DNA of 64,000 nucleotides from Patescibacteria group bacterium (lineage in GTDB: Bacteria > Patescibacteriota > Patescibacteriia > UBA10025 > JAHIVO01). Shown here piece after piece: positions 18,128 to 63,280 of the stretch (position 1 is its first letter; every line of letters starts with the position of its first letter). The notes below the pieces were generated by a model, which was not told the origin of the DNA, ran no database searches, and saw only the letters and a program-made list of their open reading frames with translations. The translations under genes were made by a program, and so were the position numbers. The stretch covers positions 85,226-149,225 of the forward strand of contig JBAZKE010000003.1 in assembly GCA_041650915.1 (NCBI GenBank), in the 5' to 3' direction.

Positions 18128-18254
18128 TGCAAATGGCGCCATAAAAGCTATAATGAGTGTAAGTAATAACACAACGGGGTGTGGCCCCGCATCATTCACT
18201 CTGTTCAGATGCGGGGTAAAGGTGCTTTATCTGTTACGTTATTATGAGCTTAAT

Positions 18255-18328
18255 CGGGGATTAGCGCAGTTGGCTAGCGCGCATGCATGGGGTGCATGAG
18301 GTCACCGGTTCAAGTCCGGTATCCCCGA
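18255..18328 (+). tRNA. tRNA-Pro (anticodon GGG)
   Basis: A cloverleaf was folded by hand: acceptor CGGGGAT/ATCCCCG, anticodon stem CATGC/GCATG, loop ATGGGGT, T-loop TTCAAGT. No encoded CCA. Confidence 0.8.
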
Positions 18329-18666
18329 TTAAGCTCATAATGGAGTGCGTGCCTGTCCCGTACCCGGACGAAGTGGGCGGTGTAGGGAGGTTGTAGGTTT
18401 CCCGCTGCTTGGATCGCGTCGAGACTTGAAGGTCGAGCGGTGCGGAAACCGCCGCGAGACTAGGGCCGCAGGGAAGCACATAGCCTGGGCCAAGCCGCAG
18501 GGTGACGCCACTCCCGTATCCCTACCGTACGGAGGTTGTTTTTGTAGTGGGATTGCATCAGATGCAGGAATATGCTATAGTAATCAATTCCTTGTGTATC
18601 CTGTTGTTCTTTGACAGGGAAATCGGCTAACACATGAGGAGAGGGCTCTTTTTTTAAGGAGGCACT

Positions 18667-62230: not shown

Positions 62231-62497
62231 ATGGCAATGAATCGTACGGGTATCGCTGTGACAGGCGAAGTGCTGAAGATTACGGACGAGAATCCATACT
62301 ACTATGTTATTAAAGGAGGGTGGAGCGTCTGGACAGCTCTTCACAAACGCGATACCGCTGGTTTGTGCGCTATGGGCACAGCGGCTCAAAAAGGCAGGTA
62401 CTATTTGTACTTCACTCTCGGAAAGCCTAGTATAGAGGCTTTCGAAGAGTTGCTGCGCGACCTCATGGCAAAGGTTGAAGAGGTCAGCGCGAGATAG
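62231..62497 (+). CDS. Hypothetical small protein (88 aa)
   Basis: An RBS GGAGG, an upstream promoter TTGACA-17-TACGAT, and a terminator hairpin after the stop. Confidence 0.45.
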   Translation: MAMNRTGIAVTGEVLKITDENPYYYVIKGGWSVWTALHKRDTAGLCAMGTAAQKGRYYLYFTLGKPSIEAFEELLRDLMAKVEEVSAR

Positions 62498-62590: not shown

Positions 62591-62618
62591 TTGACAACAG
62601 ACTGATATTTGGTAGTAT
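62591..62618 (+). promoter_or_regulatory. Sigma70-like promoter (TTGACA, 16 nt, TAGTAT) driving the tRNA-like/GIY-YIG/tRNA-Lys array
   Basis: Read directly. Confidence 0.45.
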
Positions 62619-62648
62619 GCAATGTAGTTTCGTTATATGTTTGTGCGC

Positions 62649-62708
62649 GGGTCGTTAGCTCAGTTGGTAGAGCACTCCGCTCTCAGAAGAGCGGAGGTGT
62701 CACAGGTT
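62649..62708 (+). pseudogene. tRNA-like element, copy 1: acceptor and D arm identical to the downstream tRNA-Lys, anticodon arm replaced by a 9-bp stem with a 4-nt loop, no T arm or 3' acceptor strand
   Basis: GGGTCGTTAGCTCAGTTGGTAGAGCAC then TCCGCTCT-CAGA-AGAGCGGA then GGTGTCACAGGTT; after that it diverges into the GIY-YIG ORF. Confidence 0.5.
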
Positions 62709-62717
62709 TCAGAGTAT

Positions 62718-62972
62718 ATGTACTGGGTATACATACTAGAGAGTTTGAAAGATTACGGTTATTATACGGGTAGTACGAGCAACCTTGATGACCGCTTAGA
62801 GCGCCATTACAGTGGCAGGTCAAAAGCCACGAAAGCTAGATTACCTCTCGAACTCGTCTATAAGAAAGGTTTTCAGAAGAAGAGTGAAGCCTTAAGATTC
62901 GAGCGTTACATTAAGAGGCGTAAGAGTAAGCAGTATATTGCACATTTGATAAGAGACCACGCGGGTCGTTAG
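62718..62972 (+). CDS. GIY-YIG nuclease domain protein (small free-standing homing-endonuclease-like ORF)
   Basis: MYWVYILESLKDYGYYTGSTSNLDDRLERHYSG matches the GIY...YIG motif pattern. The ORF starts inside tRNA-like copy 1, and its stop codon lies within copy 2. Confidence 0.7.
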   Translation: MYWVYILESLKDYGYYTGSTSNLDDRLERHYSGRSKATKARLPLELVYKKGFQKKSEALRFERYIKRRKSKQYIAHLIRDHAGR

Positions 62973-63022
62973 CTCAGTTGGTAGAGCACTCCGCTCTCAG
63001 AAGAGCGGAGGTGTCACAGGTT
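62963..63022 (+). pseudogene. tRNA-like element, copy 2 (identical to copy 1), followed by a 9-codon remnant of the GIY-YIG ORF (MYWVYILNV*)
   Basis: Direct repeat of 62649-62740. The flanking ATAAGAGACCACGC is also repeated ahead of the intact tRNA. Confidence 0.5.
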
Positions 63023-63074
63023 TCAGAGTATATGTACTGGGTATATATATTGAACGTTTAATAAGAGACCACGC

Positions 63075-63147
63075 GGGTCGTTAGCTCAGTTGGTAGAGCA
63101 CCTGCCTTTTAAGCAGGGTGTCACAGGTTCGAGACCTGTACGACCCA
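63075..63147 (+). tRNA. tRNA-Lys (anticodon TTT)
   Basis: Full cloverleaf: acceptor GGGTCGT/ACGACCC, anticodon stem CCTGC/GCAGG, loop CTTTTAA, T-loop TTCGAGA. Confidence 0.85.
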
Positions 63148-63155
63148 ATGCAAAG

Positions 63156-63186
63156 ACGCTTTATTATCCAATAAGGCGTTTTTGTT
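63156..63186 (+). terminator. Terminator after tRNA-Lys
   Basis: ACGCTTTA..TAAGGCGT stem (one G-U pair) followed by TTTTTG. Confidence 0.5.
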
Positions 63187-63280
63187 GTTATATGTTTTTT
63201 TGAGCAGTCTCGAAGGGCAGGAGCGACCCTGAGCGAAGCCGAAGGAGAGCGCCGACGGATGCGACCGAGGCAATCGTATG

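Follow-up and report, generated by a model that had tools for sequence, protein, structure and literature searches.

A tRNA-Lys locus of a Patescibacteria group bacterium that may have been invaded by a small, selfish GIY-YIG element

Results

A nuclease gene and two disrupted tRNA copies precede an intact tRNA-Lys gene

We analyzed a 64-kb stretch of DNA from the metagenome-assembled genome of a Patescibacteria group bacterium (hereafter the window, meaning the whole stretch) and focus here on the locus of its lysine transfer RNA (tRNA) gene at 62591-63195. In 5' to 3' order, this tRNA-Lys locus consists of a promoter, a pseudo-tRNA-Lys, an open reading frame (ORF) for an 84-residue (84-aa) GIY-YIG protein, a second pseudo-tRNA, a remnant of the ORF, an intact tRNA-Lys(UUU) gene and a terminator (Table 1). 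An earlier note on this DNA had described two tRNA-like copies, the ORF and the intact tRNA gene as four elements behind one promoter; sequence, alignment, ARAGORN and Rfam place all four where the note had them, with small corrections given below.

Table 1. Features of the tRNA-Lys locus, in window coordinates.
Feature	Position	Strand	Remarks
Sigma-70-type promoter-like sequence TTGACA-16-TAGTAT, TG-extended -10	62591-62618	+	10/12 match
Pseudo-tRNA-Lys copy 1 (T0a)	62649-62711	+	27/27 + 13/13 identity; 16 bits on Rfam tRNA
Palindrome H copy 1, CTCCGCTCT-CAGA-AGAGCGGAG	62675-62696		9-bp stem, 4-nt loop
Free-standing GIY-YIG gene, 84 aa, catalytic domain only	62718-62972	+	Pfam PF01541
Junction ATAAGAGACCACGC copy 1, ORF 3' end against tRNA 5' end	62949-62962	+	
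Pseudo-tRNA-Lys copy 2 (T0b)	62963-63025	+	layout as copy 1
Palindrome H copy 2	62989-63010		inside T0b
Nuclease ORF remnant MYWVYILNV*, 9 codons	63032-63061	+	left by 202-bp internal deletion
Junction ATAAGAGACCACGC copy 2	63061-63074	+	
Intact tRNA-Lys(UUU), anticodon TTT	63075-63147	+	ARAGORN; Rfam 72.6 bits, E = 9e-16
Terminator-like hairpin (63150-63185) and T-rich tail	63150-63195	+	closes transcription unit

The segments of tRNA-Lys that the note had recognized in copy 1 are exact, and copy 2 retains the same positions without change. The acceptor 5' strand and D arm (62649-62675) match tRNA positions 1-27 without a difference, as do the variable region, the 5' T-stem strand and two T-loop bases (62696-62708) with positions 43-55. 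The T arm, which had been described as absent, is thus half present: homology to the tRNA ends within the T-loop (after ACAGGTT), and the 3' T-stem and 3' acceptor strands are missing. The sequence GGGTCGT has no complementary partner upstream of the 3' end of the real tRNA. In both pseudo-copies the 17-nt anticodon arm is replaced by a perfect 22-nt hairpin (palindrome H), with the stem and loop lengths given in the note. Folded as DNA, the window palindrome reaches -10.8 kcal/mol (z = -4.9), compared to -4.4 for the real anticodon arm.

In the covariance-model comparison that the note had proposed, both pseudo-copies score 16.0 bits (E = 3.6) on the Rfam tRNA model (RF00005), below the gathering threshold of 29 and with an incomplete cloverleaf, and therefore do not qualify as members of that family; the real tRNA gene passes. 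ARAGORN likewise calls the real gene alone and neither pseudo-copy. Searching the locus with Rfam at E ≤ 10 gave nothing beyond tRNA and no intron family. An intron-containing tRNA or a group I intron was rejected, as no 3' half lies between the ORF and the next complete tRNA and no Rfam intron was found.

That copy 2 repeats copy 1, as had been claimed, is borne out by 89 identities in 90 positions between 62960-63049 and 62646-62735 (the 90-nt repeat). Units 1 and 2 are separated by four substitutions and by the 202-bp deletion that shortens unit 2 (spacing 314 versus 112), the junction of which is marked by a 3-4-nt (T)ATA overlap. The sequence ATAAGAGACCACGC stands before both the second pseudo-copy and the real tRNA, and the ORF remnant and repeated junction that the note had assigned to this region are both there.

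The promoter at 62591 is orthologous to the tRNA-Lys promoter of relatives (L160 and L156; names of this form are labels of the compared loci). A single promoter likely serves the whole unit, although not exclusively, because a weaker promoter-like site (9/12 match, 63022-63051) adjoins the tRNA gene just 5' of it; the single promoter of the note stands with this addition. A single C-to-T difference between the units, together with the deletion, yields the -10-like sequence TATATT some 24 nt upstream of the intact tRNA-Lys, which could supply the tRNA with a promoter of its own.

The ORF encodes a GIY-YIG catalytic domain of a tRNA-linked subfamily

The ORF matches Pfam PF01541 at 60.1 bits (cut-off 22.6, E = 2.7e-16) over residues 28-98 of a 111-aa reading. 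This longer reading, which starts in the pseudo-tRNA, is the recorded call, and the exact 84-aa product is absent from databases. Of the suggestion that the ORF begins in the first tRNA-like copy and ends in the second, the latter part is correct, the stop codon TAG being tRNA positions 8-10 of copy 2; the ATG lies 10 nt beyond the end of tRNA homology, yet within the 90-nt repeat. In an alignment of 8 homologues, Y5, Y16, G18, R26, H30 and E62 are invariant, corresponding to the Tyr of GIY, Tyr-x-Gly, Arg, His and Glu. The GIY-YIG domain alone spans all 84 residues, leaving no separate DNA-binding domain of the type found in the homing endonuclease SegB.

The protein resembles UPF0213/COG2827 (structures 1zg2 and 1ywl, YhbQ/YazA, SLX1 domain) in fold and in single-domain size (80-110 aa in UPF0213). 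It matches the UPF0213 structures BH0048 (1zg2, E = 6.6e-11) and EF2693 (1ywl, E = 2.9e-4) and, weakly, SLX1; YhbQ and YazA belong to the Slx1 family (PMC7017083). PHROGs, PADLOC and NCBIfam did not place the ORF in any meaningful family. Only four weak matches came from the phage collections and four from the plasmid collections, and for this reason the element is not considered typically phage- or plasmid-borne.

A tree of the homologues that we gathered puts the tRNA-linked ORFs in a clade of their own, in which the G-x-G-A-K-Y-T motif that follows His in UPF0213 is missing and R-S-x-x-T-K is found instead. Because of this separate clade and motif, the window protein is filed as a related, tRNA-linked subfamily rather than as classic UPF0213. 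Classic UPF0213 members together with a large Bacteroidota group differ also in location, only 3 of 87 in our sample lying at tRNA genes. The ratio of nonsynonymous to synonymous substitution rates (dN/dS) between relatives is 0.08-0.20, and the ORFs of the family are under purifying selection. Sister ORFs in the tree differ in the isotype of the neighboring tRNA and in the side of the intact tRNA on which they lie. Retargeting must therefore be easy, and it is unlikely that an 84-aa protein with no DNA-binding domain encodes the site specificity.

Related ORFs lie beside tRNA genes of 14 isotypes

All five of the nearest homologues with retrievable context stand beside a tRNA gene (Lys, Gln or Asp) accompanied by partial tRNA copies, with a palindrome replacing a tRNA arm. 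We gathered 148 further loci from genomes and metagenomes; the survey covers 155 homologous loci. ARAGORN finds a tRNA gene within 400 bp of the ORF in 59 of the 155, where chance adjacency would account for about 2-3 by our own estimate from ordinary tRNA density. ORF and tRNA are on the same strand in every one of these tRNA-linked loci (59/59), which span 14 amino-acid isotypes and many bacterial phyla.

Short-word BLAST of each tRNA against its flanks recovered partial copies in nearly all 59 loci, usually 100% identical, with one side of the acceptor stem missing or arms disrupted; both breakpoints and insertions are concentrated at three places, the D-loop, the anticodon arm or loop, and the T-loop. 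Writing A for the acceptor 5' strand and D arm, B for the anticodon arm, C for the variable region, T arm and acceptor 3' strand, and H for the palindrome, two layouts dominate among the tRNA-linked loci: A-H-C'-ORF-ABC (the window, L001, L087 and L159) and ABC-(terminator)-ORF-A'-H-C (the Asn and Asp types). In either layout, the 3' end of the ORF runs up to or into the 5' portion of a tRNA or pseudo-tRNA. Some loci of the family have a terminator directly before the ATG of the ORF, and units occur in tandem in L008, L010, L011, L014 and L020.

At the Rfam gathering threshold, the matches in 20 related loci were the intact tRNAs, one hairpin-bearing tRNA-Pro copy in L023 and, as the only non-tRNA match, a DUF3800-IX RNA in L087 (1993-2058, minus strand, 41.8 bits and thus above threshold), about 180 nt downstream of the Glu-type element. 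In L023, the ORF stands between two full-length tRNA-Pro(GGG) copies, at 1385-1481 and 1746-1842, in both of which an identical 21-nt hairpin separates the D arm from the anticodon arm; on the tRNA model, the copy at 1746-1841 still reaches 44.6 bits. L009 holds an Asp-type ORF with an in-frame stop (1501-1755), a decaying copy in an otherwise complete unit. In Flavobacteriia (L044 and L058), homologous small GIY-YIG ORFs occur away from tRNA genes and between inverted repeats of about 25 nt, GGTGGCTGAGCGTAGTCGAAGYCAC (noted at 1440-1500 and 1860-1900 of L044), a bracketing like that of a transposon or a miniature inverted-repeat transposable element; around the window ORF we found no terminal inverted repeats.

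GC-rich palindromes are a hallmark of the family

The hairpin, which the earlier note had treated as a peculiarity of this locus, is instead an instance of a near-perfect DNA palindrome that recurs across the family. The commonest pattern, TCCCG-N(2-16)-CGGGA, was observed 85 times, in 46 loci, compared to 6 times in shuffled sequences. In its 53 unique versions, pairing continues beyond the five fixed pairs to a total of 6-10 Watson-Crick pairs, and the interior positions covary. Formal loops measure 0-4 nt, hardly any G-T pairs occur, and five of the versions are perfect palindromes. Other GC-rich types are TCCGC...GCGGA (the window, L159 and L135), which is a variant of the TCCCG...CGGGA hallmark, as well as CCTGCC..., CCCCGAT... 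and GGCCG. Beside the ORF or tRNA, GC-rich perfect hairpins occur at 4.4 per kb versus 0.8 per kb elsewhere in the same loci (5.5-fold), and 52 of the 59 tRNA-linked loci have them. TCCCG...CGGGA palindromes also lie inside related repeats at non-tRNA homologues (L066 and L036).

In L093, L097 and L112, palindromes are cleanly inserted with no target duplication, and in L103, L112 and L015 they are nested in one another. Several related copies can be present at one locus; those of L052, L112 and L036 have extended stems in common and different loops. In AT-rich L159, one pseudo-tRNA-Lys is broken by three GC-rich hairpins. Because the stems are Watson-Crick, the loops short, the insertions clean or nested and the related copies multiple, these features suggest not an RNA hairpin under selection but a palindrome that acts at the DNA level and would be spreading or copied within the locus. 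The best fit is a small mobile or gene-converted insertion that inactivates a redundant tRNA copy, and the palindrome may also be a structural substrate of the Slx1-like nuclease.

Three other accounts of the palindrome were rejected. Snap-back copying of the adjacent tRNA does not explain arms that are unlike the flanks and GC-rich even in L159. An addiction device with lethal deletion is not compatible with the Asn type, in which long 3' homology gives viable deletions. Simple target-site immunity would call for a tRNA region that is disrupted in every pseudo-copy, and there is none. Throughout the 64 kb of the window, the two palindromes of this locus are the only ones of the family type; the other perfect hairpins there were considered and set aside as ordinary terminators.

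Relatives hold empty, decayed and occupied versions of the locus

Syntenic relatives were found through DnaB, which is encoded next to the locus, and they supply the comparison of empty and occupied sites that the earlier note had called for. In L160 (DnaB 83% identical), the DnaB-YbaB-RecR synteny is the same and the same divergent promoter is followed directly by an intact tRNA-Lys; with neither pseudo-copy nor ORF, this is the empty site. L156 (DnaB 94%), from an independent assembly, is a decayed version: the same promoter and leader are followed by a 13-nt tRNA 5' fragment, about 70 nt of decayed sequence, an ORF remnant and an intact tRNA. By alignment this remnant is orthologous to the unit-2 remnant of the window, which is itself occupied. 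At the 3' end of the ORF, units 1 and 2 differ at three positions, and unit 2 agrees with L156 at all three, which indicates that the remnant unit is old; the unit with the intact ORF is either a retained or a re-acquired copy. The contigs of these two relatives end inside the tRNA-Lys gene (L156) and about 66 nt past it (L160), which suggests that repeats commonly break metagenome assemblies at this locus.

In layout, L159 and L001, which are the closest relatives of the Lys type, agree with the window; L159 (61% identical) also shares the TCCGC/GCGGA base of the palindrome and a TAG stop within the tRNA. L130 and L133 are one locus with and without a whole extra unit, in which a diverged ORF lies beside an intact tRNA. 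In L157 (DnaB 82%), the tRNA is inverted, the ORF is absent and three pseudo-fragments are broken by hairpins. Here the same 64-nt structured insert (GGGCAG...CTGCCC, 4 mismatches) appears at 2655-2718 and 2914-2977 and interrupts two pseudo-tRNA-Lys fragments, one at its D-loop and the other at its T-loop. Together with the tandem units, this allele series is the pattern of invasion, amplification and decay expected of a selfish nuclease gene.

Discussion

A probable selfish element at tRNA genes

With a rough probability of 0.6, we read the locus as a tRNA-Lys(UUU) unit invaded by a small, free-standing selfish element like a homing endonuclease. More broadly, the related loci look like a family of tRNA-gene-invading selfish elements that was previously undescribed; a literature search, limited in extent and so yielding absence of evidence only, found no report that places small GIY-YIG genes of the UPF0213-like kind at tRNA genes of bacteria or that describes tRNA arms replaced by palindromes. 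The element separates the tRNA, positions 1-55 of which are duplicated, from its promoter, and the host keeps its tRNA-Lys because the downstream copy is intact.

On this selfish-element reading, the element would insert by recombination, duplicating part of the tRNA gene while regenerating one intact copy. For the ORF, which seems to have neither its own promoter nor a good Shine-Dalgarno sequence, low-level expression would come from the precursor transcript of the tRNA. The nuclease would break tRNA-gene DNA, as SegB does at the T-psi-C box, and recombinational repair against the element-bearing copy would spread the element to naive tRNA alleles, that is, by homing. In cis, breaks and direct tRNA repeats would promote unequal recombination, giving a tandem second unit whose ORF then lost 202 bp. 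The palindrome would mark and inactivate the redundant tRNA copy and may be a substrate of the Slx1-like nuclease. The earlier note had likewise proposed tandem duplication driven by a GIY-YIG homing endonuclease. The alleles, the 14 isotypes, the arrays and the selection on the ORF fit that proposal; that the nuclease causes the duplication or cleaves tRNA-Lys is suggested by analogy with SegB.

Several points weigh against this reading. That the protein acts as a nuclease, which DNA it would cut and what the palindrome does are inferred. The 84-aa protein has no DNA-binding domain such as gives SegB and I-TevI their site specificity, and if the target lies inside the tRNA gene, the element regenerates its own target, a situation tolerated in SegB. 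The score on TIGR01453 (intron- and seg-type endonucleases) is 16.8 bits, below the cut-off of 56. The Asn and Asp types retain an intact T arm. The empty and occupied alleles come from genomes 6-17% apart in DnaB protein rather than from one population, and recombination between direct repeats could build arrays with no nuclease involved.

Comparison with known systems

The nearest published cases are phage SegB and the GIY-YIG insertions in rRNA genes of the candidate phyla radiation (CPR). SegB is a free-standing GIY-YIG homing endonuclease of the T4 tRNA cluster that recognizes the T-psi-C box of tRNA genes and homes together with flanking tRNAs (PMC2330249), and it drives a recA/uvsX-type, nuclease-dependent segmental amplification of tRNA and segB that later collapses (PMC13096335). 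The family described here resembles SegB in consisting of free-standing GIY-YIG genes among tRNA genes of many isotypes, present or absent beside a conserved target gene in relatives (L160, L156 and the window; L130 and L133). The window pseudo-copies break exactly in the T-psi-C box, the box that SegB recognizes, and the window's two units, like the arrays elsewhere, recall the collapsing amplification of tRNA and nuclease. The differences are that SegB is phage-borne and joins its catalytic domain to a further C-terminal region, whereas the window element lies in a bacterial chromosome, encodes a catalytic domain only, of a UPF0213-like subfamily, and carries palindrome-disrupted pseudo-tRNA copies. 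We know of no description of such copies at SegB loci.

CPR rRNA genes hold GIY-YIG ORFs in insertions that are neither group I nor group II introns, at the tops or bases of stem-loops (PMC11270868). The bacterial group, the GIY-YIG ORFs and the location in structured-RNA genes are shared with our locus. Those insertions, however, interrupt the rRNA and are presumably excised from the RNA, whereas here the functional tRNA is uninterrupted and only the duplicate is disrupted.

Like integrase-type islands and prophages, the element sits at a tRNA gene, duplicates part of it and leaves an intact tRNA regenerated. Here, however, the duplicated part is the 5' 55 nt and not the tRNA 3' end, the element measures only about 300 bp, and the duplicate is disrupted by a palindrome. 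With that 5' duplication, and no recombinase in the gene table within 6 kb on either side, an integrase-mediated island was rejected.

GC-rich palindromic mini-elements are known from several genomes: GC clusters of yeast mitochondria, PstI palindromes flanking mitochondrial tRNA genes in Neurospora, double-hairpin elements of Allomyces, and the bacterial repetitive extragenic palindromes (REPs) with their REP-associated tyrosine transposases (RAYTs). They resemble the palindromes described here in their conserved ends and variable centers, nested and position-variable insertions, tRNA association and local spread. To our knowledge, no GIY-YIG partner has been established for any of them. REPs are mobilized genome-wide by HUH (RAYT) transposases; the palindromes described here, by contrast, do not extend beyond the nuclease/tRNA locus. 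We rejected a REP/RAYT or IS200/IS605 element, as the only gene of the unit encodes a GIY-YIG protein and not an HUH (Y1) transposase.

Alternative readings

The first alternative, a hairpin-directed mobile element, is a variant of the main reading that we regard as unlikely. The GC-rich palindromes would be mobile cis-elements, and the minimal Slx1-like GIY-YIG protein would nick stem-loops or cruciforms in a structure-specific manner; tRNA genes would be struck because their single-stranded DNA folds into stem-loops, and partial duplications and arrays would be by-products. Such an element would account for clean insertions in tRNA loops (D, anticodon and T) as well as in those of other palindromes (L093, L097, L112 and L103), for palindromes within one locus that share extended stems and differ in their loops, and for the paired 64-nt inserts of L157, an ORF-free locus. 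It would also suit TCCCG...CGGGA palindromes at non-tRNA homologues, a protein related to SLX1 that has no DNA-binding domain, and stems too purely Watson-Crick, with loops too short, for selected RNA hairpins. A GIY-YIG hairpin transposase has no precedent, however; the window, with its two palindromes, gives no sign of genome-wide spread; the palindrome sequence is not universal (TCCGC, CCTGCC and GGCCG types); and palindrome conservation in the Asn and Asp types could partly reflect overlap with C-terminal codons of the ORF. A somewhat wider claim, that the mini GIY-YIG gene and the palindromes form a new class of mobile element whose nuclease reads not the sequence but the structure of DNA, in the form of stem-loops at tRNA genes and at its own palindromes, we hold to be possible, if doubtful. 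If it is true, structure recognition would allow one tiny family to colonize any tRNA gene, seed palindromes in loops and drive local segmental duplication.

Ordinary tRNA duplication and decay, next to a housekeeping UPF0213 repair nuclease that is merely co-transcribed and not mobile, appears improbable. YhbQ and YazA, as UPF0213 proteins, are indeed encoded by chromosomal genes of unknown function, and slippage can create direct repeats. Such a history does not explain co-oriented tRNA neighbors of 14 isotypes in 59 of 155 loci, an association limited to one clade, empty, decayed and occupied alleles in synteny, the whole-unit difference between L130 and L133, or the existence of deleted ORFs and ORFs with in-frame stops. 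Neutral decay, moreover, would not repeatedly yield perfect GC-rich palindromes, even in AT-rich genomes (L159).

The earlier note had offered as its own alternative that the tRNA-like copies act as RNase P/Z punctuation that releases the nuclease mRNA. We find this very improbable, also in a wider form in which the copies would affect the stability or translation of that mRNA or regulate it. The punctuation reading is unsupported because the pseudo-copies miss half of the acceptor and T stems: the 3' strands that these enzymes require are absent, GGGTCGT lacks a partner, and the scores are 16 bits versus a threshold of 29. The ORF is co-transcribed with the tRNA, and RNase P cleavage at the real tRNA is certain and fixes where the upstream RNA ends on its 3' side; a hairpin is predicted around the start codon, but with a z score of only -1.9. 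Elsewhere in the family, partial copies with one half missing or with disrupted arms, the failure of all but intact tRNAs and one of the two tRNA-Pro copies of L023 to pass Rfam, and palindromes almost without G-U pairs and with 0-4-nt loops all speak against processing signals.

A false tandem produced by a metagenome assembler can be practically dismissed: the region is repetitive, and the contigs of two relatives end at or in the tRNA-Lys locus, but the 202-bp deletion and four substitutions that distinguish the units do not form a graph loop, the ORF is recorded on two contigs from two sources (JGI and ENA), the independently assembled L156 has the remnant unit, and dozens of unrelated assemblies share the design.

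Implications

If the selfish-element reading is correct, a subfamily related to the uncharacterized UPF0213 proteins gains a biological context and a testable function, as selfish nucleases in tRNA duplications, and the SegB paradigm would be carried from T-even phages to bacterial chromosomes of many phyla. It raises the question of how an 84-aa nuclease that has no DNA-binding domain finds tRNA genes of 14 isotypes; were recognition structural, the nuclease could serve as a tool. Palindrome-replaced tRNA arms offer a searchable signature that could improve the annotation of pseudo-tRNAs, explain breaks in metagenome assemblies and flag instability of tRNA loci in streamlined genomes, where such tRNAs may be single-copy.

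Other features of the window

An 88-aa ORF lies at 62231-62497 on the plus strand, between dnaB and the tRNA promoter. Its sole match among 5.8 billion proteins is itself; it has no Pfam domain and is absent from L156 and L160. Elsewhere in the window, a tRNA-Pro(GGG) gene at 18254-18329 (within 18241-18342) has a leader and a trailer that are complementary over 13 nt, TTATGAGCTTAAT and ATTAAGCTCATAA, and that would lengthen the acceptor stem of the precursor.

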